64,000 nt of DNA from Minisyncoccota bacterium (GTDB lineage Bacteria > Patescibacteriota > Minisyncoccia > Phycocordibacterales > Phycocordibacteraceae), in contig JBAYLD010000001.1 in the NCBI GenBank assembly GCA_041664265.1, positions 40,051-104,050 of the forward strand, in the 5' to 3' direction. Made by a program: the position numbers and the translations under genes. Below the pieces are notes generated by a model that searched no databases, was not told where the DNA came from, and worked only from the letters and a program-made list of their open reading frames with translations. Shown one piece after another: positions 11,959-50,554 of this stretch (its first letter is position 1; every line of letters begins with the position of its first letter).

Positions 11959-11975
11959 ATTGTTTGGTTGATTTG

Positions 11976-15272: not shown

Positions 15273-15282
15273 TGCTATGTGC

Positions 15283-15487: not shown

Positions 15488-16237
15488 ATGAAATATAAAC
15501 ACATCATCGCGGGCGTATTTGGATTATTCCTCCTCTTTCCTTTCCATCATGCCTCCGCCAGCCTTCTTTGGTGTGATCCACTGTTAGGAGGCTGTAGCAA
15601 TCCATTCAGTGGAGTGGATCAGAGCATTCAGCAACAGCAATCACAGGCCCAAGCACAACAACAGTCGTGGCAACGAATACAAGACAAAGAGAGCGCACTA
15701 AAGTCGCAGTATGGCTATGCTGCATACACGTCCTGCACAGCTAATATGCTACATATCGACGGTGGAGACATTGCTCAAGTCACAATGTATCTCAATGCGG
15801 ATGAGCCGTGCATGGCGAGCTACAAATCGAAACAAGAACAAGCGGCAAGCACGCAATGCACATCACTGGGAAACGGTCGCTATAGTGGCAATTGCACATG
15901 CGGTGCTGGATACACGTTTAAAAATAACGTATGCACGCCAATCACCTGTGATGCGGGCTACATTTTAAGGGATAGCACCTGTGTATTAGGAACTCAGTTC
16001 TGCACCAGTAAATTTGGCTCCAACAGCGTATTTAACGGCAAGCTGTGCGACTGCGCATCCGGGTACAAGTTTAATGAATTCTTTGACTCGAGAGCACAGT
16101 GCGTAGCAGTCACTCCGGCTAAGACAACCGGCTCTCATCTTGCGGCTAATCAAATCGCCGCGATCCTCTCGCTGTTGCAGTCCTTCGGTGCCGATGCAAA
16201 AACAATCGCTAGTGTAAAAGCTGCGCTCGGGCAATAA
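15488..16237 (+). CDS. Secreted cysteine-rich protein with repeated C-x-C-x2-GY-x(n)-C modules and a Gln-rich linker
   Basis: Signal peptide 'MKYKHIIAGVFGLFLLFPFHHASA'. Modules 'CTCGAGYTFKNNVCTPITCDAGYILRDSTCV' and 'CDCASGYKFNE'. Confidence 0.55.
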   Translation: MKYKHIIAGVFGLFLLFPFHHASASLLWCDPLLGGCSNPFSGVDQSIQQQQSQAQAQQQSWQRIQDKESALKSQYGYAAYTSCTANMLHIDGGDIAQVTMYLNADEPCMASYKSKQEQAASTQCTSLGNGRYSGNCTCGAGYTFKNNVCTPITCDAGYILRDSTCVLGTQFCTSKFGSNSVFNGKLCDCASGYKFNEFFDSRAQCVAVTPAKTTGSHLAANQIAAILSLLQSFGADAKTIASVKAALGQ

Positions 16238-16247
16238 TCATCGTGGC

Positions 16248-16607
16248 ATGCCGTACAAAAGCACTAAGCACGCATTCGTATGGATCGGTGGGTTAATAAT
16301 CATCGCGACGACAGCGTACGGAGCATCAAGGCTCTACGCGCCTAAGCCGCCAATATCAGAGGAACAATCAGCGGGTCAGCGAGTTTGCGATAAGATCAAC
16401 GACCTCATGGCGAAGACTGGCGGCACGATAGACCCTTCACTCACTGTTGCCGTCTGCATCGAGGCGAATAAAGACTGTGAGAATCGTTTGGGACCCCACT
16501 CTATATGGGCAGGAGCTGCTGATGTGAACAATGTCCCACATTGCGACTGCGACGATGGGTATCACTGGGCTACTGATGGTTCAGGAAAATGTGTTGCGTG
16601 GCAGTAA
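16248..16607 (+). CDS. Membrane-anchored or secreted cysteine-rich protein, paralogous module to the preceding gene
   Basis: N-terminal TM/signal segment. 'CDCDDGYHWATDGSGKCVAWQ' is the same CxCxxGY module. Confidence 0.5.
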   Translation: MPYKSTKHAFVWIGGLIIIATTAYGASRLYAPKPPISEEQSAGQRVCDKINDLMAKTGGTIDPSLTVAVCIEANKDCENRLGPHSIWAGAADVNNVPHCDCDDGYHWATDGSGKCVAWQ

Positions 16608-16617
16608 CGATGACGCT

Positions 16618-16884
16618 ATGAAATCACGTAAAAATCGCACAAAGGACATTGCCGTTACATACGAATATATCGAACCAAAAACGGAGGAAGAGAAAAGAGA
16701 GGCCGAGCGAAGACTGGTGCAGACCTACGACATTATCTTCGCCGCCATGCGTCGTAAAATAAAGAGGGAGATGGAAGGAGACATAACGCTAATTCCAGAA
16801 AGGAGGCTCAAAATGTACAAGTGGTTCGTCTATTGGTTTGATGCAACACAGCAAAATAGGGCCGCCGGTAGGACGACCCTATAA
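16618..16884 (+). CDS. Hypothetical charged small protein
   Basis: ORF downstream of the Cys-rich genes. The start at the internal Met 16618 avoids overlap with the upstream gene. Confidence 0.25.
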   Translation: MKSRKNRTKDIAVTYEYIEPKTEEEKREAERRLVQTYDIIFAAMRRKIKREMEGDITLIPERRLKMYKWFVYWFDATQQNRAAGRTTL

Positions 16885-17081
16885 TGCTACTGCCTAGATC
16901 TCATCATCTGCGAGCCCGAATCTTTCCTCCTCGCCAAGCACGTTGTCTAGCACCAAGACATCGCGGAAGATGTGGTCCTCCGGTTCGGCAGCCTCTTCGT
17001 AATGCTTCTTCTCGTCTCGGTACAGGTAATTAACGATGCGGGTGAGAGCTTTGTGTTCAGATAGGTACATACCTATATCAG

Positions 17082-17591
17082 TTAGTCCCACCAGAAGCGG
17101 AACTCCTCTCGGGCGACCTCGAACGGCATCCCCGGTTGTGGAGGGGACACGGTAACTATCTCGCTCCACTCCCGACCATTGAAGCGTTTCTGCGTCTCGT
17201 TCTCTATCTCGAGCTCATACGACACCTCGTCAGCCTTTGCGACACGCGCGAACTGCTCTATTGCCTGTACGTCTCCTTCACTTAATGGAGAATCTCCGGT
17301 ATGTAGGTAGCGACGTATATACAGCACGGGGGAACCTTCGCGCCCGACCTCCAGCGTGTAGGTTCGTTTGCCGTTGTTAGGGTTAGGATGCCCGCTCACA
17401 TCAGCGAACTTGGCACGAGGGATAATGCGGTCTATCTCTAACAGCATCTCGCCGACATCCGAGCCTATAAGCTCATTGTACCCGCCAAGCGTACGCAGGA
17501 ACTCGATAGCGACTGGTAGAGGCACCTCTGCTCTCATACGCAGCGTGTCCTCAAAGACTGACAACAGGGCGTAGGTAGAGGCACGACTCAT
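17082..17591 (-). CDS. Hypothetical protein (island cargo)
   Basis: ORF only. Same strand as the flanking small ORFs at 16894-17169 and 17588-17779 (possible 3-gene operon). Confidence 0.3.
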   Translation of the reverse strand: MSRASTYALLSVFEDTLRMRAEVPLPVAIEFLRTLGGYNELIGSDVGEMLLEIDRIIPRAKFADVSGHPNPNNGKRTYTLEVGREGSPVLYIRRYLHTGDSPLSEGDVQAIEQFARVAKADEVSYELEIENETQKRFNGREWSEIVTVSPPQPGMPFEVAREEFRFWWD

Positions 17592-17779
17592 ACTTCGACT
17601 GGGAACATCTTCCGTCTTGCATTCGTTAAGGCTTCGTCCCTTGTCTCTCCGAAGCCAAGCACAGCACCGGTTGTCTTGCTCACCACGCGATACCCAATGA
17701 GCGTGCCGTCTCCCATATCGTCCTCATCTCCCCAAACAGCACCGTGTCCGAAGACCGGTTCAATTGTCATAGTTTGCAT
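17588..17779 (-). CDS. Hypothetical small protein
   Basis: ORF only. 4-nt overlap with the downstream ORF. Confidence 0.25.
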   Translation of the reverse strand: MQTMTIEPVFGHGAVWGDEDDMGDGTLIGYRVVSKTTGAVLGFGETRDEALTNARRKMFPVEV

Positions 17780-18109
17780 TCGTTCTAACTAATAAGCGAA
17801 CACTCGCCGAGTCGTGAGGGGGGCGGGGCTGTGGTTCCACTTCGACTACCTCTACTTTCGTTTGGTGCCATACAGTACTAAACCTGCGCGGAGGGCGGAC
17901 AAAATCTCCATCGTTTTAGAAACGACAAGCCATTCTGAAAACGCAAGCCTGAAAAAAATTCCGCGCCATTTTCTGGATACTTTGCTGTCCATGCGGCATG
18001 CATAATTGCGTTATCCCCAACTAGGCAAACACTATTTCGCGGCTCAGATAAGCCGCGGATTGGGAAACTCTCCCGATTTCAATATCTTGCGGTCCAAACA
18101 GCGTGTACA

Positions 18110-19165
18110 ATGCAAAATATGCAGACTCTACAAAAACCAATAGTCAGAGTCGCGCCCGCCATTAAGATAAAACGGGAAGAGACAAAGAAGAGCAAACCGC
18201 TTCGTATCGTCTCGCTTTTTTCCGGATCTGGAGGGATGGACCTAGGATTCCAACAGGAAGGATTTGAACTCGCATGGGCGAACGATGTGAACCATTGGGC
18301 TTGCGAGACCTTCAGGAAGAACTTTGGCGACCACATCGCAGAAGGCAGCATTGTCGACATCGAAAATAAAAAGATACCGAGCTGCGACGTTGTGCTTGGA
18401 GGATTTCCTTGTCAGGACTTTTCAATGCTGTGGAAGCGCATGGGGCTTAAAACGGACCGCGGGAATCTCTATCGGCAATTCGTGCGCGTTGTCCTCGACA
18501 AGAAGCCGAAGCTATTCGTTGCCGAGAATGTGAAAGGCATCATGAGCGCCAATGGAGGCAAGGCCGTGGAACAGATAAAAAAGGACTTCGAGAAAGTCGG
18601 CTATAGCGTAAGCGTCAATCAGATCAACTTTGCCAATTACGGAGCACCGCAGCTGCGCGAGCGCGTGTTGATTGTAGGCGTGCGCAAGGATCTTAAGAAG
18701 GAATTCAAGCTGCCCGCCCCGACGCACTCTCCAGGCAACTATGTTACTGCCAAGGAGGCCTTAAAAGGCGTCCAGCGGGTGCCCTTTAACAATGAACATC
18801 AGAACATTGCTCCTTCAACCATTGCGAAATTGAGGATCATACCTCCAGGCGGAAACTTCACAGACATTCCGAAGAGTTCCCCTCACTACGTGAAAGGCAT
18901 GATATCCCACGTTTATCGGCGTTTGCATCCGGACAAACCTTCGACTACCATCATCGCAGGCGGCGGTGGCGGCACATGGGGTTACCACTATGAAGAGCTG
19001 CGCCCTCTCACAAACAGAGAGCGCGCCCGCTTGTTTGGCTATCCCGACGACTTTGTCTTTGTTGGATCGATAACAGAGGTCAGGCGGCAGATTGGAAACT
19101 CTGTGCCCCCTGCCGGGATTAGGCCTATTGCTAAAGCAATAAAACAATTTTTAGATGAACTATAA
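18110..19165 (+). CDS. DNA cytosine-5 methyltransferase (Type II R-M methyltransferase)
   Basis: Motif I 'LFSGSGGMDLGF', motif IV 'GGFPCQDFS', motif VI 'ENVKG', motif X 'QIGNSVPP'. Confidence 0.9.
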   Translation: MQNMQTLQKPIVRVAPAIKIKREETKKSKPLRIVSLFSGSGGMDLGFQQEGFELAWANDVNHWACETFRKNFGDHIAEGSIVDIENKKIPSCDVVLGGFPCQDFSMLWKRMGLKTDRGNLYRQFVRVVLDKKPKLFVAENVKGIMSANGGKAVEQIKKDFEKVGYSVSVNQINFANYGAPQLRERVLIVGVRKDLKKEFKLPAPTHSPGNYVTAKEALKGVQRVPFNNEHQNIAPSTIAKLRIIPPGGNFTDIPKSSPHYVKGMISHVYRRLHPDKPSTTIIAGGGGGTWGYHYEELRPLTNRERARLFGYPDDFVFVGSITEVRRQIGNSVPPAGIRPIAKAIKQFLDEL

Positions 19166-19176
19166 AATCAGATTGC

Positions 19177-20229
19177 ATGGAGCTCCTGTACTCGAACATC
19201 AAACCGTGCGAGTCTGATAACTCGTCGTTTAGCGAAGCCTTTGAGGCCGGCGTTGTAAAGTCTGACAGCATAAAGATCGCGACAGGCTACATAACAGAAG
19301 AGTCTCTTTTGGAATTGAAATCGATTCTGTCGTTTTATTTTGACGAGGGAAAAATCAAGAAGTGCAGCCTGGTGCTTGGCATGCACGGCAGAGAGGGTTT
19401 TACTCAGGCGCAATACGAAGCTGCAATAAATCTAGCTATGCTCCTTAAGGAAAGGGACATCGGCGCAGTATACGTTTGCACCGCCTTTAAATTCCACGGC
19501 AAGACCTATGTGTTTTATAAAGCCGATGAGCCTGTCTCTGCTGTGATGGGATCGTCGAACTTGAGCAATATCGTCGACAGCCGCGTATGGGAAGTCGACG
19601 CTCTTTTTACCGAGGCGAAGATCCTCTCGGAACTCGATGCGCTGCACTCCAGTCTGGTTGACAAGGCTTGCCACAACATTCTCGAAATGGAAAAGCCTTC
19701 CACGTTTAACCACGCGAGAGACTTGCTGAAGGACAGGATAGGAGTCACTAAAGCTGACCCCGAGACATACCGCGAAGCTGAAAACTCCGTAACTGATAAG
19801 GTCTTCGACTTGCCGCTGAAACCGGAAGCAAAAAGCAACTTGAACGCTTACTTCGGCAAAGGCAGAATGTCCAAGGCAACCGGGGCAATTCGTCCCCGCC
19901 ATTGGTATGAAGTCGAATTGATTGTTCCGATAGAGATAACATCCTCGCCGTCATATCCGAAAAACGGGTCCGTCTTCCACGTCTTCACCGACGACGGGTG
20001 GTCCTTTAACTGTAAAGTCGAAGGACAGAACGGAAAGAACTTTAGATCGGAGAATGACCTGAGGACTCTGGGCCGATGGATAAAGGGGCGGCTGGAAAAT
20101 TCCGGCTGCCTCAAAGTCGGGCAGCCAGTGACCGAGGAAGTTCTGAAAAACTACGGGCGCCGCACGCTGTCTCTCAAGCAGACAACTAAACCGGATGTGT
20201 GGCTGTTGGATTTCTCAAACAAAGCATGA
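19177..20229 (+). CDS. PLD-family restriction endonuclease (R.CglI/R.NgoAVII-like: N-terminal HKD nuclease plus C-terminal DNA-binding domain)
   Basis: HKD-like motif 'HGKTYVFYKADEPVSAVMGSSNLS' (H-x-K ... GS-x-N). About 350 aa. Immediately after the m5C methyltransferase and translationally coupled to the next gene. Confidence 0.55.
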   Translation: MELLYSNIKPCESDNSSFSEAFEAGVVKSDSIKIATGYITEESLLELKSILSFYFDEGKIKKCSLVLGMHGREGFTQAQYEAAINLAMLLKERDIGAVYVCTAFKFHGKTYVFYKADEPVSAVMGSSNLSNIVDSRVWEVDALFTEAKILSELDALHSSLVDKACHNILEMEKPSTFNHARDLLKDRIGVTKADPETYREAENSVTDKVFDLPLKPEAKSNLNAYFGKGRMSKATGAIRPRHWYEVELIVPIEITSSPSYPKNGSVFHVFTDDGWSFNCKVEGQNGKNFRSENDLRTLGRWIKGRLENSGCLKVGQPVTEEVLKNYGRRTLSLKQTTKPDVWLLDFSNKA

Positions 20230-22109
20230 CCTTCCTAGAAAACTACCTGCAGCGAGTTGAAGCCGACAAGCCCGGCCTCGCGCTAGCTTTGAAGAAGAGC
20301 GCGGAGGAATTTGCGAGTCTCCACATCGACAGCTTTGACTTCAATAGCCATAAGTCGGGACTGCTCTACGGACATGTGCAGAGCGGCAAGACGGGACAAA
20401 TGCTTGCAATCGCGGCAGCCGCGGCGGATCGCGGGTTCAAGTTTTTCATATTATTCACGACCGACAATGTAATACTGCACAAGCAGACCCTTGAACGCGC
20501 GCAGCAGTATCTCGGCGGATTTATGGCGGGCTTCAATGTGCTCGGCGAGATGGACGAGGAGGCATTCTTGACCCGCAGCTTGGCGATGCCCACGATGCTC
20601 GTGCTCAAAAAGAATACGAGCGTTCTCAAGACCTGGTGCAACAACATTGAAAGCAATAAAACCTACAAAGACGAACCTCTGTTCCTCTTGGATGACGAGG
20701 CAGATGCGTCGAGCCTCAATACAAAAGTAAATCAGAATGACCAGAGCACAATAAACCAACTGCTCGAAAGAATCGACGGGCAAGCCCCATCAAGCATGTA
20801 CCTCCATGTAACAGCTACGCCACAATCGCTCGTCCTCCAGGTATCTAATTCCATGTGGAAACCGGAGTTCTCCTTCTACCTGCCACCCGGGGAGTCGTAT
20901 CTCGGCGGGGACTTTTTCTACGGCGAGAATTCACAAAGCCTCGTTATGACAGAAGACAACGAGCGCGATGATTTATTGAAGGCGGAACACGTTCCTGTCG
21001 GCCTGCGCGAGGCCGTGCTGCACTTCCTCGTTGCCGCTTCGGAGTTGTTCCTTACGAAAGAGAAACCGGTATGCACACTGCTAATCCATCCTGGAGCAAA
21101 AATCAGCGAACACGCGACCGTAAGAACGAAAATAGAAAAGTTCCTCGAAGGAGTAAAAAGCGACCTGATAGCAAACTCATCGACTCTCGAATTCGCCATC
21201 CGGGACGCATGGGAGGAACTTAAGAAAACGAAACCGGACATTCACAGCTTCGAAGAGATACTCGGGTTCCTCAGAACGCGGATGCCGAATGTGAACATCA
21301 TCGTCCTGAACTCGAAAACTCCAGTTGGTTCTGTGTATGACAAGGGTCTTAATATCGTCATCGGAGGCAATACTCTCGGCCGAGGAGTCACTTTCCCAGG
21401 CCTGCAGGTGGTCTACTACTGCCGAAGCGCAAAAACACCGCAGGCTGACACCTCGTGGCAGCACGCGCGCATATTCGGCTATGACCGGGAACCTGGGTTG
21501 TGCAGGATCTTCAGCCCCCGCCCACTAATGAAGCTGTTCCAGGAGTTGAATGACGCAAACAATGCTCTGTTTGAAACGTTGAGGATTAAGGGTCCGCAAG
21601 CAGTAAGCATTCTTACGCCGGCAGGGGCGCGTCCAACCAGAACAAATGTGGTTTCTCGGGAAGACCTAATCGTTATTTCAGGAGGAGTAAACTACTTCCC
21701 GCTGCTTCCAACCGCGGCAAGCATTAAGAGCTTAGATGCCGAACTTGGCTCTGCGGATGATGAGCGCGAAATTACACTCGCAGAGGCTGAAAAGATTTTG
21801 AGGCTTGTAAGCGTGGAGAAAGAAGACTTGTGGAATCAACACTCGTTCCCTGATTGCGTTGAGACTCTAAAGAAGAGCAAAAAGTATTCCTGCCGACTCA
21901 TAGTTCGGACCAATAGAAGTATTGGCAAAGGAACGCGAACACTCCTCTCTGAGAACGATCGAGAACTCGGCAGCAGATACGTCGATCAGATTGTCCTCTC
22001 TATGTACCGCCTGAACGGAGAAGCAAGCAAGGGATGGGAAGATAGGCCTCTATGGGTGCCGAACATAAAGTTCCCCGATGGTACTTATTTCCACTACCAA
22101 TTAAAATAA
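20226..22109 (+). CDS. Helicase-like ATPase with C-terminal Z1-type domain (H/N subunit of a CglI/NgoAVII-type ATP-dependent restriction system)
   Basis: Walker A 'GHVQSGKTGQM', DEAD-box 'FLLDDEADAS'. ATGA start/stop overlap with the R gene. About 627 aa, the size of H.CglI. Confidence 0.55.
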   Translation: MTFLENYLQRVEADKPGLALALKKSAEEFASLHIDSFDFNSHKSGLLYGHVQSGKTGQMLAIAAAAADRGFKFFILFTTDNVILHKQTLERAQQYLGGFMAGFNVLGEMDEEAFLTRSLAMPTMLVLKKNTSVLKTWCNNIESNKTYKDEPLFLLDDEADASSLNTKVNQNDQSTINQLLERIDGQAPSSMYLHVTATPQSLVLQVSNSMWKPEFSFYLPPGESYLGGDFFYGENSQSLVMTEDNERDDLLKAEHVPVGLREAVLHFLVAASELFLTKEKPVCTLLIHPGAKISEHATVRTKIEKFLEGVKSDLIANSSTLEFAIRDAWEELKKTKPDIHSFEEILGFLRTRMPNVNIIVLNSKTPVGSVYDKGLNIVIGGNTLGRGVTFPGLQVVYYCRSAKTPQADTSWQHARIFGYDREPGLCRIFSPRPLMKLFQELNDANNALFETLRIKGPQAVSILTPAGARPTRTNVVSREDLIVISGGVNYFPLLPTAASIKSLDAELGSADDEREITLAEAEKILRLVSVEKEDLWNQHSFPDCVETLKKSKKYSCRLIVRTNRSIGKGTRTLLSENDRELGSRYVDQIVLSMYRLNGEASKGWEDRPLWVPNIKFPDGTYFHYQLK

Positions 22110-22218
22110 CATTATGACCAAACAGGAGAGGGATTAAAGGAGGAAACGAGTAAGGGCGAATGAGTTGGGCTCGCGGTTTTTATGGCAAATGATAGGCTTT
22201 TCATGAAAACCTCCTTAT

Positions 22219-24501
22219 ATGGCGATAGAGAAAATCATTTCCATAGAGAACATAGGGCGCTTACGGGCATATAAGGCTCGGGGCGACCTCTCTTTCAAGC
22301 GCTATAACCTCGTCTTTGCTGAGAATGGGCGTGGCAAGTCGACCTTGAGCGCAATACTCCGCTCGATGCGAGACGGAGACGACTCCCATATCAAAGCGAG
22401 GTACTCAGTAGGAGCGACTGCCCCCGCGAAAGTTGACGTGCGAATAAATGGTTTGAACGTCAAATACGACGGCAAGTCGTGGGACACAACTGTACCGAAC
22501 CTCGCAATTTTTGACGCTCTATTCACGAGTGAGAATGTACATTCTGGTGACTCAGTCGGAACGAGCCATCGTCGCAACCTATTGCAGATCATGCTCGGTG
22601 CGCAAGGTGTTAACCTTGCAAAGAAGGTTGGTGAACTTGATGAGCAGATTCGGAATGCAAATACGAGTATCACCGAGCGCAAGCGTGCGATCGCTAGGTA
22701 TCTAGAACCTCATGCCGATGTTGACGACTTCGTGCGTCGTCCGGTTGTGGGTGGCATCGCTACACAGATAAAAAATAAGAAGGCTGCACTAGAAGCTGCG
22801 CGCCAAGCAGGTGAGATACAGACACGCACGTCTATCGAAACCATTCCGTTGCCGTCACTGCCTGAGAAGTTCGACGAACTCCTTGATCGGGGCTTGAAGC
22901 AAGTATCTACTGATGCGGAGAAGAAGGTTCGTGAGCAAATAGAACATCACCACATGGGTGAGGATGGTGAGGAGTGGCTTTCACAGGGGCTTGCATACGT
23001 CGTGGACGACAAGTGTCCTTTCTGTGGCTCTGCTATAGCGAGGGGCGACCAAGTGAAGCTATACAAGGAATATTTCAGTGATGCTTACGACACGCACAGG
23101 TCCGCGATTTCCGATGCTCGTAGTGTAGTCATCGGATCTCTCGGCGATACTGCTCGTGCTCGGTTCGTAAGCGGAAAAATAGAACGCAACAAGACTGCCA
23201 TGGAGTTCTGGAAGGCGTATGTGCCAGGTCCTTTCCCCGTATTCAAGGACGAGGGTGTGGTTATAGAGGCACTTGAGGGCGTGTATACGGAAGGTCTGCG
23301 ACTCATAGATAAAAAACTTGGGGCACCGCTCGATACTGTCAATCCCGATAAGCCGTACAAAGATGCGGTAGCGAAGTATGAGACCGTGCGAGCGATGTTC
23401 GATGCATATAACGAGGTGGCAAATAATGCAGACAAAAGCATCGCAGAAGTAAAGCGTACGAGTCGTTCCGCAGACCCACGAACTATACAAGCTGAACTCA
23501 AGGACCTTGAACTGACCGAGCGTCGGCACGCCGATCCAGTGAAGACCTTGTGCGAAGAATACGTTGCCGAAGTTGTGGCAAAGAAGACCCTCGACACACA
23601 GAAGGATACTGCGAAAGATGCTCTTGATGCATATGCCGAAACGGCGCTCAATGGATACCAAGAGGAAATCAATCGGTTGCTATCTCAGTTCGGAACAGGC
23701 TTCACCATTCATAGTACGGTGCGCAGCTATGTTGGTGGTGCACCAACTTCGTCCTACCAACTCATGATTGATAGCTGCCTCATTGATTTGGGTGACGATA
23801 ACACAACAGGCAAGCCCTGCTTCAAGACCTCTATGAGTTCAGGAGACAAGAGTGCACTCGCGCTTGCTTTCTTCCTTGCTCATCTCGACAAAGATGCATC
23901 CAGGTCGCAGAAGATAGTCGTCTTCGACGACCCGTTCACCAGCTTTGACCGTTCGCGTCGTGAGCAGACCGTGCAGTTGATAAAGAAGTTTGGGGAGTCA
24001 TGCGCGCAAGTTGTCGTACTCTCTCATGATCCCTCGTTCTTGAAGCTTCTCTCTGACCGTCTAGACAAGGCAGATACGAGACAGATGCAGATTTCGCGAG
24101 CAGGAGTTAACTCCACTCTCGAAGACTGGGATGCAGACAAGGAAAACCAAGGTCTCTACTTCAAGGATCGCGATGATCTACGAGCCTACATTGATGGCAC
24201 TTCGACCACAGCACTTCAGGATGTGGCGAGAAAGATACGTCCGGTGCTCGAAGGATACATGCGAATTCGCTTCGCAGGAGGATTCCCCGACAACATGTGG
24301 CTAGGCGACATGATCGGGCATGTGCGCACGGCAGGAGCAACGCACCCGCTGTTTCCGGAACTCCAAAATCTATCGGAAATAAACGATTACTCGAAACGCT
24401 ACCACCACGAGACGAACCCAAACTGGAACGCGGAACCCATCTCCGACGGTGAGCTCAAAACGTTCGTGAACAGGACTCTCTTCCTGGTAGGAGGGTACTA
24501 G
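22219..24501 (+). CDS. RloC-like ABC-type ATPase with zinc hook (candidate restriction-linked anticodon nuclease)
   Basis: N-terminal Walker A 'ENGRGKSTL', CxxC hook 'CPFCGS' within predicted coiled coils, ABC signature/D-loop 'SSGDKSALALAF...IVVFDDPFTSFD', about 150-aa C-terminal extension. Located right after the R-M genes. Confidence 0.45.
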   Translation: MAIEKIISIENIGRLRAYKARGDLSFKRYNLVFAENGRGKSTLSAILRSMRDGDDSHIKARYSVGATAPAKVDVRINGLNVKYDGKSWDTTVPNLAIFDALFTSENVHSGDSVGTSHRRNLLQIMLGAQGVNLAKKVGELDEQIRNANTSITERKRAIARYLEPHADVDDFVRRPVVGGIATQIKNKKAALEAARQAGEIQTRTSIETIPLPSLPEKFDELLDRGLKQVSTDAEKKVREQIEHHHMGEDGEEWLSQGLAYVVDDKCPFCGSAIARGDQVKLYKEYFSDAYDTHRSAISDARSVVIGSLGDTARARFVSGKIERNKTAMEFWKAYVPGPFPVFKDEGVVIEALEGVYTEGLRLIDKKLGAPLDTVNPDKPYKDAVAKYETVRAMFDAYNEVANNADKSIAEVKRTSRSADPRTIQAELKDLELTERRHADPVKTLCEEYVAEVVAKKTLDTQKDTAKDALDAYAETALNGYQEEINRLLSQFGTGFTIHSTVRSYVGGAPTSSYQLMIDSCLIDLGDDNTTGKPCFKTSMSSGDKSALALAFFLAHLDKDASRSQKIVVFDDPFTSFDRSRREQTVQLIKKFGESCAQVVVLSHDPSFLKLLSDRLDKADTRQMQISRAGVNSTLEDWDADKENQGLYFKDRDDLRAYIDGTSTTALQDVARKIRPVLEGYMRIRFAGGFPDNMWLGDMIGHVRTAGATHPLFPELQNLSEINDYSKRYHHETNPNWNAEPISDGELKTFVNRTLFLVGGY

Positions 24502-34090: not shown

Positions 34091-34131
34091 CAAAAAGAAC
34101 CCCGCACTACGTCGTGCGGGGTTCTTTTTTT
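34091..34131. terminator. Bidirectional rho-independent terminator (A-tract, 11-bp GC stem, T-tract) between tRNA-Asp and the peptidase gene
   Basis: caaaaa-gaaccccgcac-tacgtc-gtgcggggttc-ttttttt. Confidence 0.65.
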
Positions 34132-35050: not shown

Positions 35051-36391
35051 ATGGGACATAGTATACAGAACTTTGACGCGCTCGCAGAGAGTGAACAGAG
35101 ACGCGACGCGCTCGCGATAGCCGAGGCCGGCTACGAGGCAATAAACATCGGCAATGCCCTGCGACGCAAATTGAAAATCGAAAATGCTGCCCTGCAAATT
35201 GATGGACACGGAGTGTCCATCAATTTGCAAAACAGAAAAGTGTTTTTTGTCGGCATCGGGAAGTGCGCGTTTGTAGCTGCTCAAGCAATCGAACAGTTAC
35301 TTGGTGAACGCCTGACTGCCGGTATCGCGTTTGATGTGTCCGATCTGTCGAGATCAGATGTCGACAACAACTGTCGACATCTGATCTCGACTTCGAGAAT
35401 TGAGAAAATTGTCGGCACGCATCCCTTGCCGAACGAGGTGAACGTACAAGCGACAGAACATATCCTGCAATTTCTTTCAGAACGCACTGAAGAAGATCTG
35501 ATCATCATGCTCATCTCCGGCGGCGGCTCTACCTTGATCTGTGCCCCCGAAGCCCCCATGACATATCAGGATGAAGTTACCCTCTTTAAAGAACTAACGG
35601 CAAAAGGCGCGACCATACAAGAGATGAATACGGTGCGCAAGCATACCTCCCGCGCGCGCGGCGGTGGCCTCGCGCGCGCCGCCTTCCCTGCCGAAGTTAT
35701 TTCTCTGATTGTGTCTGACGTACCAGGGAACGACATTGCATACATCTCTTCCGGCCCGACGGTACGAGACGCCTCGACGATCGCCGAGGCCGAGACGGTG
35801 TTTGCGCGCTATGACATTACTCCGCCAGCGAACACCGTGTTCACAGAAACACCAAAAGAAGAGAAGTTTTTTGAGCGCGTAACCAACGTCCTCTTCCTCA
35901 CCAATCAAGACGCGCTCGCTGCGATGCAGGGCGAAGCAACGCGCCTCGGCTATACGGCCGAAGTGGTTGACGACCACTTTTCTGGCGAGGCGCGCACTAT
36001 CGGCCACAGTATTGTGGAAAAACTTCACGCTGCACCATCAAAAACTGCCCTCCTCTACGCCGGCGAAAGCACTGTAATGATGGACACTCCGTGTCCATCA
36101 ATTTCTGGGACTGGTGGACGGAACCAAGAAATGGCACTCGCTGCGCTCGAGGACGTACGCGGTGACGAGCTTGTCCTACCTTTCGCTTCAGATGGCCACG
36201 ACAACACTGACCACGCCGGGGCGATCGCTGATGCGGTCACTATCGCACATGCACGGGCAAGAGATATCTCGTCTGTAGAGTATCTCGCGGCACACCGTTC
36301 GTATGATTTTTTCAAAACAACCGGCGACGCACTTCAGACGGGGTATACTGGATCAAACGTGTCTGACCTTATCGTCGCACTCAAACTTTAA
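35051..36391 (+). CDS. Glycerate kinase (glycerate 2-kinase; MOFRL/GckA-TtuD family)
   Basis: 'GGGSTLICAPE', 'IQEMNTVRKHTSRARGGGLA', 'LIVSDVPGND', C-terminal MOFRL 'GGRNQEMALAAL...SDGHDNTDHAGA'. Start at MGHSI (35051); the ORF begins at 34871. Confidence 0.8.
   Translation: MGHSIQNFDALAESEQRRDALAIAEAGYEAINIGNALRRKLKIENAALQIDGHGVSINLQNRKVFFVGIGKCAFVAAQAIEQLLGERLTAGIAFDVSDLSRSDVDNNCRHLISTSRIEKIVGTHPLPNEVNVQATEHILQFLSERTEEDLIIMLISGGGSTLICAPEAPMTYQDEVTLFKELTAKGATIQEMNTVRKHTSRARGGGLARAAFPAEVISLIVSDVPGNDIAYISSGPTVRDASTIAEAETVFARYDITPPANTVFTETPKEEKFFERVTNVLFLTNQDALAAMQGEATRLGYTAEVVDDHFSGEARTIGHSIVEKLHAAPSKTALLYAGESTVMMDTPCPSISGTGGRNQEMALAALEDVRGDELVLPFASDGHDNTDHAGAIADAVTIAHARARDISSVEYLAAHRSYDFFKTTGDALQTGYTGSNVSDLIVALKL
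35193..35229. repeat. Family-A palindromic element, full copy (17-bp arms, 3-nt spacer), inserted in-frame in the glycerate kinase gene
   Basis: tgcaaattgatggacac-gga-gtgtccatcaatttgca. Encodes 'QIDGHGVSINLQ'; the antisense frame also reads IDGHSVSIN. Confidence 0.7.
35347..35391. repeat. Family-B palindromic element (20-bp arms, 5-nt spacer, two SalI-like GTCGAC cores), inserted in-frame in the glycerate kinase gene
   Basis: gtcgagatcagatgtcgaca-acaac-tgtcgacatctgatctcgac. Encodes 'RSDVDNNCRHLIS'. Confidence 0.7.
36075..36104. repeat. Family-A palindromic element, degenerate copy in inverted orientation, in-frame in the glycerate kinase gene
   Basis: aatgatggacac-tcc-gtgtccatcaattt. The spacer tcc is the reverse complement of gga in copy A1. 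The antisense frame encodes EIDGHGVSI. Confidence 0.65.
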
Positions 36392-36414
36392 ATCTTTAAA
36401 TATTTAAATAGCAT

Positions 36415-38802
36415 ATGACCACACCCTTTATTCTCTGGATGAAAGATATCGGCATGGAGGATGTCCCCCAAGTGGGCGGCAAGAATGCGTCGCTGGGAGA
36501 GCTGATCCGCTCGGTGGTGCCCAAGGGCGTGCGCGTGCCAGAGGGATTCGCCGTCACTGCCGAAGCGTACTATCATTTTCTCAAACAAACGGGTCTCGAT
36601 ACTTTTATTGCAAAAACGCTTGAGGGATTGAACACGCAGAATCTCAAAGAACTCTCGCGGTGCGGCAAGCTGGTGCGCGACGCAATGCGCTCCACTCCCC
36701 TCCCGACCGATCTTGAGAAAGCGATCAACGAAGCCTACGCACAGATGGAAAAAGAATATGGGAAGAATGTTGACGTGGCAGTACGCTCGAGCGCGACCGC
36801 CGAGGACTTACCGGGTGCGTCGTTTGCCGGCGAACACGAGACGTATCTCAACATCCGCGGAGCTAAGGATGTTGCGCGCGCGACCGTCTGGGCGATGGCA
36901 TCCCTCTTCACCGACCGTGCCATCTCGTATCGGGCCGATAAAGGCTTCGCGCATACGAAGGTAGCCCTCTCGGTGGGTGTGCAGAAGATGGTGCGAAGCG
37001 ACACCGGCGCCTCGGGCGTCATGTTCACCGTGGATACCGAAAGCGGATTCCGCGATCTCGTGCTCATTAACGCCGTGTGGGGATTGGGCGAGATGATCGT
37101 ACAGGGCCATGTAACGCCCGACGAATATCTGGTGATGAAGTCGCACATCGGTGTGGCGAAGAACCCGCTCATAACCAAAAAACTCGGCGTGAAGAATAAG
37201 AAGATGCTCTACGCTCACGGGAAGATCGGTGTCATTCAGACAAAAGTCGTGAAGACATCGACGAAGGAGCAGGAAAGTTTCGTCCTTACCGAAGCTGAGG
37301 CGGTAGAGCTCGCACGCTGGGCCGCGCTTATTGAGAAACATTATTCCGAGCGGGCGAAGACATGGACACCCATGGATATGGAGTGGGCGAAGGATGGCGA
37401 GACAAACGAACTGTATATCGTGCAGGCGCGCCCCGAGACGGTGCAGGCGCGCCGCGACTTCTCGAAGCTCATCGAATACACGGTTACGGGCCAGGGCAAG
37501 ACACTCGTGCAGGGTATCTCGGTCGGCTCAAAGGTCGCCATCGGCACGACGCGCACCATACTAGATCCGAAGCAGATACGAGAGTTTAAGAAGGGCGAGG
37601 TACTCGTCACCACCATGACCGATCCCGATTGGGAGCCGATTATGAAGATGGCATCCGCTATTGTTACGGACCAAGGTGGGCGTACTTCTCATGCGGCAAT
37701 CGTCTCGAGAGAGCTCGGGCTCCCAGCAATCGTGGGTGCGGGCAACGCCACGCGAGTATTAAAAACGGGCACGCTCGTGACGGTCGATACGACTGGAAGC
37801 GTCGGGGTGATTACTGCAGGAAAAGCAAAAATAACAACGCACGAGCACGACATCGGCGCTTTACCAGAGACGAAGACGAAGATCATGGTGAACATCGCAT
37901 CGCCAGATATCGCCTTCGAAACTTCGTTCCTGCCGGTCAAGGGCGTCGGACTCGCGCGTGAAGAATTCATCATCGCCTCCAACATCGGCATCCATCCGCT
38001 CGCCATTCTCAACTTCAAGAAACTCACGCCGAAGTTGCGTGCCGCTATCCAGAAGAAGACGGTCGGATGGAAGAATTCCGTTGACTACTATGTCGATAAT
38101 CTCGCCTACGGCATCGCTAAGATCGGTGCCGCTTTTGCACCGCGCCCCGTTATCGTCCGCTTTTCTGACTTCAAGACGAATGAGTATTCAACGCTCCTCG
38201 GCGGCGAGGCCTATGAGCCAAAAGAGGAGAACCCGATGCTCGGCTGGCGCGGCGCCTCCCGCTACTACGACCCGAAGTTCAAGGATGCGTTTGTATTGGA
38301 GTGCCGTGCTCTCGTAAAGGTGCGCGAAGAAATGGGTCTCGACAACGTCATCCCCATGATCCCCTTCTGCCGCACCGTAGCAGAGGCCGAACAGGTGTTG
38401 GATATCATGAAGAAAAACGGCATTACCGCGCCAATCTACATGATGTGTGAAATCCCCTCGAACGTTATCTTGGCAGAAGAATTCCTCGATCTCTTCGACG
38501 GCATGTCGATCGGTTCGAATGATCTCACCCAGCTCACACTCGGGCTCGATCGCGATTCGGGCATCGTAACGCACATTAGCAACGAAAATGACGAGGCCGT
38601 GCGCGCGTTGATCAGCATGATCATCCGCAAGTGCGCCGCACGCGGGAAGTATCTCGGCATCTGCGGACAAGGTCCTTCAGACCTCCCTGATTTCGCCGAG
38701 TTCTTGGTGAAGGAAGGGATCCCAAGCATGTCGCTCAATCCCGACTCGGTGATAAAAACTTTAGAGAGTATCGCCGAGGTCGAAGAACGGCTGTCCCGCT
38801 AG
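36415..38802 (+). CDS. ppsA: Phosphoenolpyruvate synthase (pyruvate, water dikinase)
   Basis: N-terminal 'VGGKNASLGE', phosphohistidine 'GGRTSHAAIVSRELG', C-terminal PEP-utilizing 'NDLTQ'. 795 aa. Confidence 0.9.
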   Translation: MTTPFILWMKDIGMEDVPQVGGKNASLGELIRSVVPKGVRVPEGFAVTAEAYYHFLKQTGLDTFIAKTLEGLNTQNLKELSRCGKLVRDAMRSTPLPTDLEKAINEAYAQMEKEYGKNVDVAVRSSATAEDLPGASFAGEHETYLNIRGAKDVARATVWAMASLFTDRAISYRADKGFAHTKVALSVGVQKMVRSDTGASGVMFTVDTESGFRDLVLINAVWGLGEMIVQGHVTPDEYLVMKSHIGVAKNPLITKKLGVKNKKMLYAHGKIGVIQTKVVKTSTKEQESFVLTEAEAVELARWAALIEKHYSERAKTWTPMDMEWAKDGETNELYIVQARPETVQARRDFSKLIEYTVTGQGKTLVQGISVGSKVAIGTTRTILDPKQIREFKKGEVLVTTMTDPDWEPIMKMASAIVTDQGGRTSHAAIVSRELGLPAIVGAGNATRVLKTGTLVTVDTTGSVGVITAGKAKITTHEHDIGALPETKTKIMVNIASPDIAFETSFLPVKGVGLAREEFIIASNIGIHPLAILNFKKLTPKLRAAIQKKTVGWKNSVDYYVDNLAYGIAKIGAAFAPRPVIVRFSDFKTNEYSTLLGGEAYEPKEENPMLGWRGASRYYDPKFKDAFVLECRALVKVREEMGLDNVIPMIPFCRTVAEAEQVLDIMKKNGITAPIYMMCEIPSNVILAEEFLDLFDGMSIGSNDLTQLTLGLDRDSGIVTHISNENDEAVRALISMIIRKCAARGKYLGICGQGPSDLPDFAEFLVKEGIPSMSLNPDSVIKTLESIAEVEERLSR

Positions 38803-38803
38803 T

Positions 38804-40036
38804 ATGCGCATCGATCACGTTGAAGCCAAACAGATTCTCGACACGCGCGGCCGCGCGACGTTAGAGACAACACTCCTCGCGAACACACTTTCTGCGACTG
38901 CTTCGGTACCGTCGGGCAAAAGTACTGGCTCACACGAGGCACTTGAACTGCGCGACCCCGACGGGAGCGTCGCGCAAGCAATCGGGAATGTGAATGGAGA
39001 AATCGCGAAAGCGATCGTCGGCCGCCGTTTCGATACGCCCGGTGACCTTGACGCATTTCTCATTGAGCTTGACGGCACTCCGAATAAGTCACGGCTCGGC
39101 GCGAACGCGATTCTCTCGGTCTCTATCGCCGCGATGCGACTCTCCGCCTTTCTGCAGGACATCCCGCTCTGGAGCGCCATCGCGAAGCGTGGCGGTTTCA
39201 CCGCCACAGCACCGCGGCTCTACGTGAACGTGATGAATGGCGGCGCCCATGCCGATTTTAAGCTCCCTTTTCAAGAATATCTTCTGGTGATCGAGGGGAA
39301 GACGAGTGAAGCATTTCCTCTCGCGCAAGAGCTATTCGCGAAGCTTGGTGAACTTCTGTCGAAATCAGATGTCGACAGCAACTGTCGACATCTGATTTCG
39401 ACAAACGGGGTGCCGATGGGCGACGAAGGCGGCTATGCCCCGACCTTCGACACGATCGAGAAGCCGTTTGAGATCCTCTCGTCACTTATCGCCGGACACC
39501 CAAATGTTTCGCTCGCGATCGATGCCGCCGCGAGCGAACTCCTCCATGGTGGCGTATATCAACTGCTTGGAAAATCGTATTCGCCTGACGAGCTCGCAAC
39601 GCTTTACCGTGAGCTTGTCGAACGGTTTCCTATTCATAGCATTGAAGACCCGTTTGCTGAAAATGCGCCCGATGATTTTGCCCAGCTAAACACAACTCTT
39701 GGGCAACAGATCCTCATTATTGGCGACGATCTCACAGTTACTGATCCTGTGCGCATCAAAGATGCTGCTGAACACAAAGCAATAAATGCGGTACTGATTA
39801 AGCCGAACCAGATCGGCACGGTGCGCGAGGCGCTCGAGGCCGTCAAAGAGACATACGTCGCGAGCTTCCAAGCGGTGGCGTCGCACCGCTCGGGCGAAAC
39901 AGGCGACACCTTCATCGCGGACTTCGCCTATGGCGTCGGTGCTCACGGACTCAAGGCCGGCGGCTTCGCACAAAAGGAACGTCTCGTGAAGTATGAGCGC
40001 CTCATGGCGATAGAGCGCGAGACTGCAGCTGTCTAG
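38804..40036 (+). CDS. eno: Enolase (phosphopyruvate hydratase), carrying an in-frame family-B palindromic insertion
   Basis: 'ILDTRGRATLE...SVPSGKSTGSHEALELRD', 'GDEGGYAP', 'IKPNQIGTV'. An extra 'SKSDVDSNCRHLIS' loop lies before GDEGG. Confidence 0.85.
   Translation: MRIDHVEAKQILDTRGRATLETTLLANTLSATASVPSGKSTGSHEALELRDPDGSVAQAIGNVNGEIAKAIVGRRFDTPGDLDAFLIELDGTPNKSRLGANAILSVSIAAMRLSAFLQDIPLWSAIAKRGGFTATAPRLYVNVMNGGAHADFKLPFQEYLLVIEGKTSEAFPLAQELFAKLGELLSKSDVDSNCRHLISTNGVPMGDEGGYAPTFDTIEKPFEILSSLIAGHPNVSLAIDAAASELLHGGVYQLLGKSYSPDELATLYRELVERFPIHSIEDPFAENAPDDFAQLNTTLGQQILIIGDDLTVTDPVRIKDAAEHKAINAVLIKPNQIGTVREALEAVKETYVASFQAVASHRSGETGDTFIADFAYGVGAHGLKAGGFAQKERLVKYERLMAIERETAAV
39357..39403. repeat. 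Family-B palindromic element (22-bp arms, 3-nt spacer) inserted in-frame in eno
   Basis: tgtcgaaatcagatgtcgacag-caa-ctgtcgacatctgatttcgaca. Shares its core with the copy at 35347-35391. Confidence 0.7.
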
Positions 40037-40050
40037 TGTAAGATACGGTT

Positions 40051-41055
40051 ATGAACATTCATTATTTTGGCGGCGAGGAGTGGGAGGAGACATACGTGCG
40101 GGAGAAGTTGGTTGGAGAAGATATCACCTTTCACAAGAATTCTCTTGCTGATTCTCCAGAGATAACCGACCCAGAGGCAGAAGCGCTCTGCACATTTGTT
40201 GAATCGCCGATCGGCGAAACTGAGCTCGCGCGCTTCCCTTCGCTCAAGATTATCGCGACGCGTTCGACCGGCTTCGACCACATCGACCTCGCGGCAGCCA
40301 AGGCGCGCGGCGTCAGTGTGGTGAATGTCCCCTTCTATGGCGAAAACACGGTTGCTGAATTCGCCTTCGCGCTCCTGCTCGCGCTCTCGCGACGCGTCAT
40401 TGACGCCGATGAACACGTACGCGAAACAGGGAACTTTTCACACGACAATCTCCGCGGCTTTGACCTCGCTGGCAAGACGATCGGCGTCGTCGGTTGCGGC
40501 CACATCGGCGCCCATGTTATCCGCATGGCACACGGCTTCGACATGAAGGTGCTCTGCTTTGACGCCCATCAGGACGCTGCACTCACCGAAAAACTCAATT
40601 TTACCTACACACCTCTCGATGATCTCCTCGCAACCTCTGACATTGTCACCATTCACGTTCCCTACAATGAGCACACACATCATCTCATCAATAAAAGCAA
40701 TATCGGCAAGCTGAAGAAGGGAGCCTATCTCATCAACACCGCGCGCGGCGCAGTCGTCGAGACTGACGCGCTCGTGGAGGCGTTGAAAGCGGGTGTCATC
40801 GCCGGCGCCGGGCTCGACGTGCTCGAAGAGGAGGGCGATATGAACGACGAACTTGCACTCCTCACTAATCCGCATCCAAAAGAAGCTGAATTAAAAATCG
40901 CGCTCGAGAATCATTATCTCATCAACCATCCGCGCGTTATCGTCACGCCGCATGTCGCCTTTAACACCACCGAGGCAGTCACCCGCATCCTCGACACCAC
41001 CATCGAGAACTTAAAGGCATTTGCCGCCGGCTCTCCCACCAACCTCGTAGCATAA
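40051..41055 (+). CDS. D-isomer-specific 2-hydroxyacid dehydrogenase (candidate hydroxypyruvate/glycerate dehydrogenase)
   Basis: NAD-binding 'GVVGCGHIGAHV', catalytic 'NTARGAVVE' and 'TPHVAFNT'. Adjacent to the glycerate kinase-ppsA-eno cluster. Confidence 0.75.
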   Translation: MNIHYFGGEEWEETYVREKLVGEDITFHKNSLADSPEITDPEAEALCTFVESPIGETELARFPSLKIIATRSTGFDHIDLAAAKARGVSVVNVPFYGENTVAEFAFALLLALSRRVIDADEHVRETGNFSHDNLRGFDLAGKTIGVVGCGHIGAHVIRMAHGFDMKVLCFDAHQDAALTEKLNFTYTPLDDLLATSDIVTIHVPYNEHTHHLINKSNIGKLKKGAYLINTARGAVVETDALVEALKAGVIAGAGLDVLEEEGDMNDELALLTNPHPKEAELKIALENHYLINHPRVIVTPHVAFNTTEAVTRILDTTIENLKAFAAGSPTNLVA

Positions 41056-41133
41056 GGTGTTTCCTTACGGAGTAAGGTGACACCTTCTGCTTCCTCAAGC
41101 AAGGAGACTCCTCGCTGCGAGGAGTCTCCTTGC
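41056..41133. repeat. Intergenic structured region: a nested partial copy of the GTAAGGTGACACCTT motif plus a 16-bp-arm hairpin gcaaggagactcctcg-ctg-cgaggagtctccttgc
   Basis: Read directly. Lies between the 2-hydroxyacid dehydrogenase stop and infB. No T-tract follows. Confidence 0.45.
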
Positions 41134-43012: not shown

Positions 43013-43084
43013 GGCCAGATGGCGAAGTGGTAACGCGACGGTCTGCAAAACCGTTATGCGCGGGTTCAATTCCCGCTCTGGCCT
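43013..43084 (+). tRNA. tRNA-Cys (anticodon GCA)
   Basis: Acceptor GGCCAGA/TCTGGCC, anticodon stem ACGGT/ACCGT with loop CTGCAAA, T-loop TTCAATT. Confidence 0.75.
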
Positions 43085-43104
43085 CTGGTAAGATATAGAT
43101 GTTT

Positions 43105-43192
43105 GCCGAGATGGTGGAATGGTAGACACGCGACGCTTAAAACGTTGTAAGCTTTAAATCGGCTTGTGTGGGTTCGAGTCCCACTCTCGGCA
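43105..43192 (+). tRNA. tRNA-Leu (anticodon UAA), type II with long variable arm
   Basis: Acceptor GCCGAGA/TCTCGGC, anticodon loop CTTAAAA, about 19-nt variable arm, T-loop TTCGAGT. Confidence 0.8.
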
Positions 43193-43208
43193 CTGAAGTA
43201 GCATATTA

Positions 43209-50497: not shown

Positions 50498-50554
50498 AAA
50501 ATTGAGTGGCAGAGATTATTTAATCTCTGCCACTCAATAATAACATCAAGCGAA

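Follow-up and report, generated by a model that had tools for sequence, protein, structure and literature searches.

Palindromic inserts in frame in the glycerate kinase and enolase genes of a Patescibacteria lineage, with hairpin symmetry preserved at orthologous sites

Introduction

Short hairpin-forming mobile inserts occur in genes of compact genomes, as exemplified by the optional GC-cluster palindromes of yeast mitochondria, the 'byp' inserts and the palindromic coding repeats of Methanocaldococcus jannaschii. In bacteria, Rickettsia palindromic elements (RPEs) are palindromic DNA lying in frame in housekeeping genes (Ogata et al., 2000, as summarised in PMC10969869). REPINs, in turn, are doublets of REP (repetitive extragenic palindromic) sequences that form hairpins and are mobilised by RAYT transposases (PMC3116915; PMC3337134); the architecture of REP singlets and REPIN doublets has been described for Pseudomonas (PMC3116915), and REP doublets are known in gamma-proteobacteria. 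At the level of mechanism, quasipalindrome template switching turns imperfect inverted repeats into perfect ones, as established in E. coli and yeast reporters (PMC7202029). Here we analyse a 64,000-nt stretch of contig JBAYLD010000001.1 from a Minisyncoccota bacterium (hereafter the window, whose positions serve as coordinates; the contig measures 213,202 nt), which carries two copies of a short palindromic element, one inside a glycerate kinase gene and the other inside an enolase gene.

The best explanation of our findings is that this element belongs to a family of short inserts, each a perfect palindrome, that is specific to one lineage, a Kaiserbacteria-like subgroup of Paceibacteria. 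What sets the family apart most is a perfect, Watson-Crick-only, four-fold symmetric covariation at orthologous coding sites. A full-text search of the open literature returned no relevant report of such elements in bacteria of the candidate phyla radiation (CPR) or in Parcubacteria.

Results

Two copies in two enzymes of one gene cluster

Both host genes belong to a conserved cluster encoding glycerate kinase, phosphoenolpyruvate (PEP) synthase, enolase and 2-hydroxyacid dehydrogenase (Table 1), the start of glycerate kinase being set at MGHSIQNF from orthologue comparison. The window enolase is 100% identical to a protein of a Candidatus Paceibacterota metagenome-assembled genome, and its relatives are Parcubacteria/Kaiserbacteria proteins. 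The initial annotation of this DNA had claimed the same palindromic element in frame in two unrelated enzymes, and this is indeed what we find, both copies lying inside long open reading frames (ORFs). They are 94% identical over 48 nt (35344-35391 versus 39355-39402), with the shared repeat beginning at 35344 at copy 1 and the homology ending within 3 nt of the palindrome. The stems differ at a single, compensated pair (G-C versus A-T), and that of copy 2 amounts to 23 bp with one mismatch if taken over 39355-39405.

A 25-nt core pattern matches the window only at these two copies, where 100 dinucleotide shuffles give an expectation of 0, and ten dinucleotide shuffles of the whole window yielded one perfect stem of at least 11 bp (12 bp), versus the 20-22 bp observed. 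The predicted RNA folding energies of copies 1 and 2 are -39 and -38 kcal/mol (z = -8.4 and -10.2), and a covariance model (R1) built from 12 copies scores them at 63.8 and 71.8 bits, respectively.

Translated in the glycerate kinase frame, copy 1 reads LSRSDVDNNCRHLIST, the palindrome itself being SRSDVDNNCRHLIST; in the enolase frame, copy 2 reads LSKSDVDSNCRHLIST, with SKSDVDSNCRHLIST for the palindrome. About 15 residues are thereby added to each host protein. In glycerate kinase they fall in a variable linker between FDVS and GTHPLP. In enolase they occupy residues about 189-203, behind helix 167-187, and end 5 residues before GDEGGYAP, with the catalytic motifs intact.

Perfect or near-perfect hairpins at orthologous sites

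Every carrier with readable DNA (loci L002, L004, L006/L013, L014, L015, L016, L018 and L019) holds at the enolase site a perfect or one-mismatch hairpin of 20-26 bp. The stem sequences are widely different, as illustrated by GGATGTCAGACATCC, GGAAGCCAGGCTTCC, GGAGGTTAAACCTCC, CGAAGTTAAACTTCG and GTGGACACTAAGTGTCCAC, and the empty enolase site of L017 shows no hairpin. Among 11 enolase-site and three glycerate kinase-site copies examined, none is a decayed full-length copy. An alignment of 14 copies runs in register without gaps and has four invariant DNA columns, and 96.1% of its cells are paired in the long-hairpin structure. Changes on both sides are found in 19 of the 22 stem pairs, versus about 9 after shuffling of the columns and 2-5 after sliding of the partners, and the observed covariation value was attained in none of 500 shuffles. 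The loop is mostly a conserved CAA.

Within the helix there is no G-U pair (0/294 cells), and the eight mismatches (8/294) comprise A-C or C-A (4), T-T, T-C, A-G and A-A. Since a selected RNA helix would be expected to use wobble pairs and none was found, this Watson-Crick-only complementarity points to a constraint or process at the DNA level. The four transition-type stem mismatches are all A-C on the sense strand, equivalent to G-T wobbles on the complementary strand; such a bias might indicate which DNA strand folds, in a number too small to interpret. The hairpins matched no Rfam family, with sub-threshold matches to microRNA precursors only.

The arms are also symmetric in themselves. 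Each is a palindrome of its own, giving the layout x A x' - centre - x T x', and in this nested structure 87.7% of the cells pair and 15 of the 18 pairs show compensatory changes. The unit can thus be described as two palindromic sub-units of 15-19 nt, inverted around a CAA or GCAAC centre, which form one hairpin of 20-26 bp and add 45 nt net (15 codons). The centre bases of the sub-units are complementary (A, T) rather than identical, so that the inverted relation of the arms is primary. At the enolase site of L020 stands a singlet, GTTAAAGTC-CG-ACTTTAAC, which adds 18 nt and corresponds to the doublet minus 27 nt, in frame.

The stem can extend into host sequence. In the 25-26 bp stems of L014, L018 and L019 the native 5' Leu codon is taken in, and the 3' side has been turned into its complement. 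An L or V stands at residue -2 from the insert in 17 of the 23 carriers and remnants versus 7 of 95 empty enolases (Fisher p = 1.6e-10), and the residue after it is N, T or D in 8 of 10 carriers, Gly occupying this place in 90 of the 95 empties. An empty enolase that is sister to a remnant carrier (P0107, QVLGNVPM) retains the V, which, from its sequence, looks like the footprint of a precise loss.

The initial annotation described the element by a SalI core and noted that an antisense ORF mirrors the peptide. In the 14-copy alignment the SalI sites are peculiar to this genome's variant and missing from those of other genomes, which rules them out as a family hallmark. The antisense ORF does exist (Table 1); its peptide mirrors the sense one because the reverse complement of the palindrome, in the same phase, encodes the same peptide except at the loop, and it is therefore a by-product of the symmetry with no value as independent evidence.

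Patchy occurrence among orthologues

In line with what had been expected, the insert is missing from most orthologues. Among the 120 closest enolases, in which the linker was measured between F..LG and GDEGGY, 95 have 8-9 residues and no insert (typically E[RK]LG[DN]VPM), while a linker of 21-26 residues, found in 10, reflects a 15-codon insert at the same codon boundary in every full carrier. Short remnants with linkers of 12-14 residues, such as ELLKSDFNNGNIPM, likewise in frame, account for 13 more. The modal enolase length in relatives is 395-396 residues, versus 410 here. Carriers are spread over at least seven small clades of a neighbour-joining tree with empties interleaved, and in the empty enolases the linker is exactly restored. 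The initial annotation had held that the same segment in distant enolases would refute its claim, and this applies in part: the site is in fact occupied in other, rather distant enolases of Paceibacteria (64-79% identity), but the segment found there is a strongly diverged, still perfectly palindromic homologue and not the same one.

All parsable 50%-cluster representatives of glycerate kinase likewise lack the insert, their linker ([LIV]D[VI] to G[TD]HP) having 19-26 residues, mostly 19-23, versus 32 here; the Thermotoga maritima structure 2b8n shows a 10-residue gap at the insert point in the alignment. Among syntenic loci, an insert fills the glycerate kinase site of the window, L004/L005, L006/L013, L009 and L012, whereas L002, L015, L017 and L020 have an empty site.

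The P0069 genome (L015) has the palindrome in enolase and not in glycerate kinase. Its glycerate kinase is split into two called ORFs by one in-frame stop at about 3339-3341 (..SEDD*ILILISGGG..), which could reflect a pseudogene, a sequencing error or recoding. In a Kaiserbacteria genome, a separate 226-aa ORF that matches LAGLIDADG_3 weakly (L013 2035-2715; L006 294-974) is located upstream of the cluster at a distance of a few kb.

Relationships among the copies

Enolase-site arms in other genomes are 45-68% identical to the copy of this genome, the host enolases being 65-80% identical. Eight arm positions, with their partners, differ from the L004-type copy identically in both window copies, so that one was copied from the other or both from a common source; as read from these sequences, the two must be related by ectopic conversion or re-insertion. 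In L006/L013, clearly different variants stand at the glycerate kinase and enolase sites. That copies are lost and decay in place is certain, as can be seen from the remnants, from the singlet and from the footprints in the flanks.

Copies at other sites and candidate mobilising functions

A metagenome-wide scan with the family pattern returned seven loci, the source contig not among them: three at the glycerate kinase site and one at the enolase site (4/7), one in a Tgt-like gene, one in a ClpB-like gene and one at a contig end. The anticipated presence in other genes was thus borne out, in other genomes. The copy in the Tgt-like gene is in frame (L007 2146-2190, read SLWMSDVHSNRGHLTST); the one at the 3' end of the ClpB-like gene lies in a stop-containing frame, with its TGA being the gene's stop codon and the loop in the opposite orientation. 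Since these copies are homologous to those of the cluster, some copying between sites occurred. The contig-end copy (L008) is identical over 41 nt to the ClpB-like one (L011), with different flanks. All copies with readable context but one are intragenic. The L007 insert sits at what we take to be about the position of the CxCxxC zinc motif of E. coli Tgt, and no CxCxxC cysteines are visible in the L007 fragment, whose contig is 2.3 kb.

The covariance model was applied to about 81 kb of this genome, namely the window and about 17 kb past its ends (8.8 kb upstream on the source contig and 8 kb downstream on a related contig). It found no further copy there, nor in the 10-kb flanks of the loci in seven other genomes. 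Two copies in about 81 kb do not show a dispersed repeat of high copy number in this genome. The core pattern had one match, in an unrelated gammaproteobacterium, among the GTDB representative genomes, a collection without the source genome, and scans of viral contigs gave 0 matches. In the DNA examined, therefore, the element is low-copy and concentrated at two sites of one gene cluster.

The 63 ORFs of the window and the Pfam tables for the loci that were fetched include neither a Y1/HUH or other hairpin-acting transposase nor a RAYT, and the only recombinases in the window are the serine and tyrosine recombinases of two genomic islands. Aligned flanks of 14 copies show no target-site duplication and no common target motif beyond a 5' TG. 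The whole element is a single palindrome and has no terminal inverted repeats with target-site duplication, in contrast to miniature inverted-repeat transposable elements.

Reading frame and protein context

The number of bases added by every intragenic copy is divisible by three (45, or 18 for the singlet); read in the host frame, these copies contain no stop, and they share phase and loop orientation. This had been attributed to selection to stay translatable, a view that finds no support beyond survivorship: 3.7 of the 6 frames are open per copy versus 2.9 expected by chance (14 copies), on which grounds selection for open frames was rejected, and the copy with a stop in its frame is at the end of a gene. 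Survivorship in essential genes therefore suffices to account for frame-keeping, with no special selection shown. A conserved functional peptide was also considered and rejected, as no residue is conserved beyond what the DNA symmetry imposes.

In the AlphaFold enolase model, the insert block has a predicted local distance difference test (pLDDT) score of 57, the lowest but one, with a model mean of 89.9. The enolase site is a length-variable loop, where solved eukaryotic enolases are several residues longer. Together with the glycerate kinase alignment to 2b8n, these data agree with the proposed location of the insert in a loop, and the most economical reading is that it is translated as a tolerated, non-conserved surface loop.

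Other palindromes and genomic islands

A palindrome of a second family lies in the same glycerate kinase gene (Table 1), and stands nearly unchanged at the same position in L017 (1744-1776). At this point the glycerate kinase is about 2 residues longer than its orthologues, so that a simple insertion is not involved. An inverted copy of 27 nt follows 880 nt downstream. In L014 (980-1045), enolase P0106 carries at another site a 20-bp perfect stem with a 14-nt loop (GCGCAACAAGGTTCGACCTT...AAGGTCGAACCTTGTTGCGC), which encodes QQGSTLNQNSQGRTLL; the QQGSTLNQNSQGRTLL insert is also found in P0040, and the two enolases are not sisters on the tree. These further in-frame palindromes in glycerate kinase and in the L014 and P0040 enolases indicate that the phenomenon is broader than 'family B', as the element of the two window copies was originally labelled. 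Other lineage-specific enolase inserts in alignment A1 are NSPSTPLG.., GKEFFESAPSAAQRNALEKFFP and VHPAVA..; the DNA of the first and third folds into weak or imperfect hairpins only.

None of the four intergenic palindromes of the window (Table 1) resembles family B. The one at 34092 has A and T runs on both sides, adjoins tRNA-Asp and gives spurious sub-threshold Rfam matches to Thr/Leu leaders; it is probably a two-way terminator.

The upstream island, a probable integrated element adjoining tRNA-Gln, encodes a large serine recombinase, several ORFs without Pfam match, a Z1-domain protein, an AAA_13 ATPase and a C5 cytosine methylase with an NgoFVII-type restriction endonuclease. The second island, which continues in L021, adjoins tRNA-Cys and tRNA-Leu and encodes a tyrosine integrase, HTH_17, PRTase-CE, radical SAM, DUF932, RadC, a PD-(D/E)XK nuclease, a type IV coupling-protein-like ATPase, a serine recombinase and a Prok-E2 / JAB-ThiF / TCAD9-kinase-like set, followed on the related contig by BubE, Multi_ubiq, a second ThiF and a PstI-type restriction enzyme with an Eco57I-type methylase. 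This set looks like a ubiquitin-like conjugation defence module.

Table 1. Positions of the palindromes, their host genes and other features in the window
Feature	Position	Strand	Details
Palindrome copy 1	35347-35391		GTCGAGATCAGATGTCGACA-ACAAC-TGTCGACATCTGATCTCGAC; 20-nt perfect arms, 5-nt loop
Palindrome copy 2	39357-39403		TGTCGAAATCAGATGTCGACAG-CAA-CTGTCGACATCTGATTTCGACA; 22-nt perfect arms, 3-nt loop
MOFRL/DUF4147 (class II) glycerate kinase	35051-36391	+	host gene 1; Pfam DUF4147 and MOFRL
PEP synthase	36415-38802	+	between the two hosts; no palindrome copy
Enolase	38804-40036	+	host gene 2; 410 aa; Pfam Enolase_N and Enolase_C
2-hydroxyacid dehydrogenase	40051-41055		last of the cluster
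Antisense ORF	39258-39485	-	75 aa; mirror reading of the palindrome within the enolase gene, not a gene
Second palindrome family in glycerate kinase	35193-35229		perfect 17-bp stem; TGCAAATTGATGGACAC GGA GTGTCCATCAATTTGCA; read LQIDGHGVSINLQ
Inverted copy of the preceding palindrome	36078-36104		27 nt; read DTPCPSIS
Intergenic palindrome	1081-1118		perfect or near-perfect (16-18 bp stem)
Intergenic palindrome	34092-34129		perfect or near-perfect (16-18 bp stem)
Intergenic palindrome	41099-41133		perfect or near-perfect (16-18 bp stem); between dehydrogenase and IF-2 genes
Intergenic palindrome	50501-50538		perfect or near-perfect (16-18 bp stem); ATTGAGTGGCAGAGATTA TT TAATCTCTGCCACTCAAT
tRNA-Gln	10274-10345
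Upstream island (probable)	10285-24501
tRNA-Cys and tRNA-Leu	43013-43193
Second island	43209-64000		continues in L021

Discussion

Taken together, these features lead us to favour, with a confidence somewhat above even, a low-copy, translated palindromic doublet of RPE/REPIN-like kind, tolerated in variable loops, whose symmetry is kept by templated correction at the DNA level and which is at times copied between sites. Symmetry would thus be maintained on the DNA rather than by selection on RNA: folding back during replication would permit templated correction, either through quasipalindrome template switching or through arm-to-arm conversion, and the same process would let the stem grow into its flanks. 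Copies would mostly be inherited with the gene cluster, would disappear or shrink by half through deletions that keep the frame (45 or 27 nt), and would occasionally be copied or converted between sites. In this regard, between-site copying is proposed as the reason why the window copies are 94% identical to each other while the arms of relatives' enolase-site copies reach only 45-68%. We regard the element as selfish or neutral, a benefit to the host being unproven.

Several observations weigh against this proposal. Similarity of the element and similarity of the host are weakly correlated (Mantel r = 0.38, p = 0.065), and the same site is occupied in non-sister lineages, for which vertical descent needs many precise losses. 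These data do not tell an ancient insertion followed by such losses apart from repeated invasions of one site. That the element recurs at exactly two sites within a single gene cluster, about 150 kb of flanks being free of copies, could also mean a host function. Moreover, the argument from zero G-U pairs draws on few informative cells (4 transition-type mismatches, all A-C), and the evidence on copy number and on hairpin transposases comes from parts of genomes.

Among the rivals, the most credible, although we consider it unlikely, is a hairpin transposon that is active but non-autonomous, either of REP/REPIN-like type or originating from IS200/IS605 ends, and mobilised by a hairpin transposase encoded elsewhere. 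Precise insertion and excision, target preference and repeated turnover would then explain the distribution, and the perfect palindromes would be young copies of genome-specific masters. Such a transposon would account for near-identical copies in two unrelated genes whose 94% identity stops within 3 nt of the palindrome, for the L008/L011 pair sharing 41 nt between differing flanks, for the Tgt-like and ClpB-like contexts, for carriers scattered on the enolase tree beside empties with an exactly restored linker, and for sub-types (GCCAGGC, GTTAAAC) common to non-sister hosts; the palindrome-doublet architecture also fits REPINs (PMC3116915). It is harder to reconcile with a count of two copies in about 81 kb here and zero across 10-kb flanks from seven other genomes, with a metagenome-wide scan in which 4 of 7 loci fall at the glycerate kinase or enolase site, with the clearly different variants at the two L006/L013 sites, and with the lack of a target-site duplication, of a common target motif beyond 5' TG and of a hairpin-acting transposase among the 63 window ORFs or fetched-loci Pfam tables. 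Ranked next, and doubtful as well, is a host-selected cis-acting hairpin in the transcript or DNA of the glycerate kinase - PEP synthase - enolase cluster, with the peptide as a side effect; it might be a site of processing by RNase III or another enzyme, stabilise the mRNA, make ribosomes pause or bind a protein. The position is conserved at two sites of one cluster in genomes at 64-83% enolase identity, the pairing-preserving covariation is very strong, the CAA loop is mostly conserved and no decayed full-length copy stands among the 11 enolase-site and three glycerate kinase-site copies; perfect duplexes of 20-22 bp, in addition, are of a length used by RNase III. Yet the hairpin is dispensable, being missing from about 80% of close orthologues and from sister lineages, and copies occur in unrelated genes too. 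Its helix contains no G-U pairs, which selected RNA helices normally tolerate, and its transition-type mismatches are A-C; the four-fold symmetry and the growth of the stem into coding flanks are DNA-type behaviour, and no Rfam family matches.

Two further explanations carry much less weight. That the insert is not translated, being bypassed by the ribosome as in T4 gene 60 or mitochondrial 'byp' or else removed from the mRNA, appears very improbable. A very stable hairpin within an ORF and a short, mobile-looking insert do resemble byp elements; however, intragenic copies always have a length that is a multiple of three and are stop-free in the host frame, neither of which a bypassed element needs, the only copy with a stop in its frame is located where a gene ends, and no matching take-off and landing codons are found at the borders. 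An assembly or amplification artefact, or a chance palindrome, can practically be dismissed. Foldback chimeras are a known artefact of amplified metagenomic DNA, but four independent sources have yielded the identical enolase protein, identical elements recur in contigs of different samples (L002/L003, L006/L013, L004/L005), the frames are intact and shuffles yield zero such palindromes.

A more far-reaching reading, which we hold to be improbable, is that of a self-maintaining, four-fold symmetric DNA element that returns to two specific in-frame sites in a cluster of central-metabolism genes. It could do so through a hairpin-specific recombination or templating activity not yet described in CPR bacteria; alternatively, the structure could have a function, such as coupling the messages for glycerate kinase and enolase in their processing or pausing. 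In both cases it would be a class of coding-sequence palindrome in which the structure is inherited, not the sequence or the peptide.

With about 90% of CPR/Patescibacteria genomes given over to coding sequence, there is hardly any room outside genes for a selfish repeat. The orthologous copies amount to an unusually clean natural record of a palindrome kept perfect during sequence turnover, one that bears on template switching and arm-to-arm conversion in genomes with reduced repair. On the practical side, inserts of this kind add to the variation in protein length and give rise to spurious antisense ORFs when CPR genomes are annotated.

Comparison with known systems

The ribosome skips byp elements, which do not have to preserve the frame; the inserts studied here do so without exception. 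The organisms of byp elements, yeast mitochondrial GC clusters and M. jannaschii repeats differ from the present host and the sequences are unrelated. With quasipalindrome hot spots the family shares a process, in which a nascent strand copies the other arm, that would explain the Watson-Crick-only pairing, the compensated differences and the stem growth. Quasipalindrome switching is, however, a mutational mechanism and not an element family, and it is not shown to keep natural in-frame palindromes over the long term.

The likeness to REPINs is architectural. In both cases two short inverted palindromic units around a spacer make one long hairpin (here with 96.1% long and 87.7% nested pairing), singlets such as that of L020 occur beside doublets, the hairpin is kept while the sequence drifts, and variants are genome-specific. 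REPINs, in contrast, are extragenic and imperfect palindromes with unit spacings of 71-110 bp, present in hundreds of copies and accompanied by a RAYT gene; the family described here is intragenic, in frame, 45 nt long, perfect and low-copy (two copies in about 81 kb, where REPINs reach tens to hundreds), and has no RAYT among the DNA examined.

With RPEs, as far as the summary of that work describes them, the element has in common that it is repeated in a small-genome bacterium, lies in frame in unrelated housekeeping or metabolic genes (glycerate kinase, enolase and, among the homologues, a Tgt-like gene), is apparently translated, presumably at a loop-tolerant position, and is patchy among relatives. 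According to the same summary, RPEs measure about 100-150 bp, are present tens of times in a genome, code for a conserved peptide specific to the family and degrade as they age. The present inserts add 45 nt net, form a near-perfect hairpin over their whole length, specify a non-conserved peptide, are low-copy in the DNA examined and are still perfectly palindromic at orthologous sites; they have no sequence relationship to RPEs, and their host is a CPR bacterium, not a Rickettsia. In-frame palindromic inserts and hairpin-forming REP doublets are thus already known, and the family reported here misses defining features of both RPEs and REPINs; it would be the second independent case, after Rickettsia, of palindromic DNA colonising coding sequence and adding loops to core enzymes.

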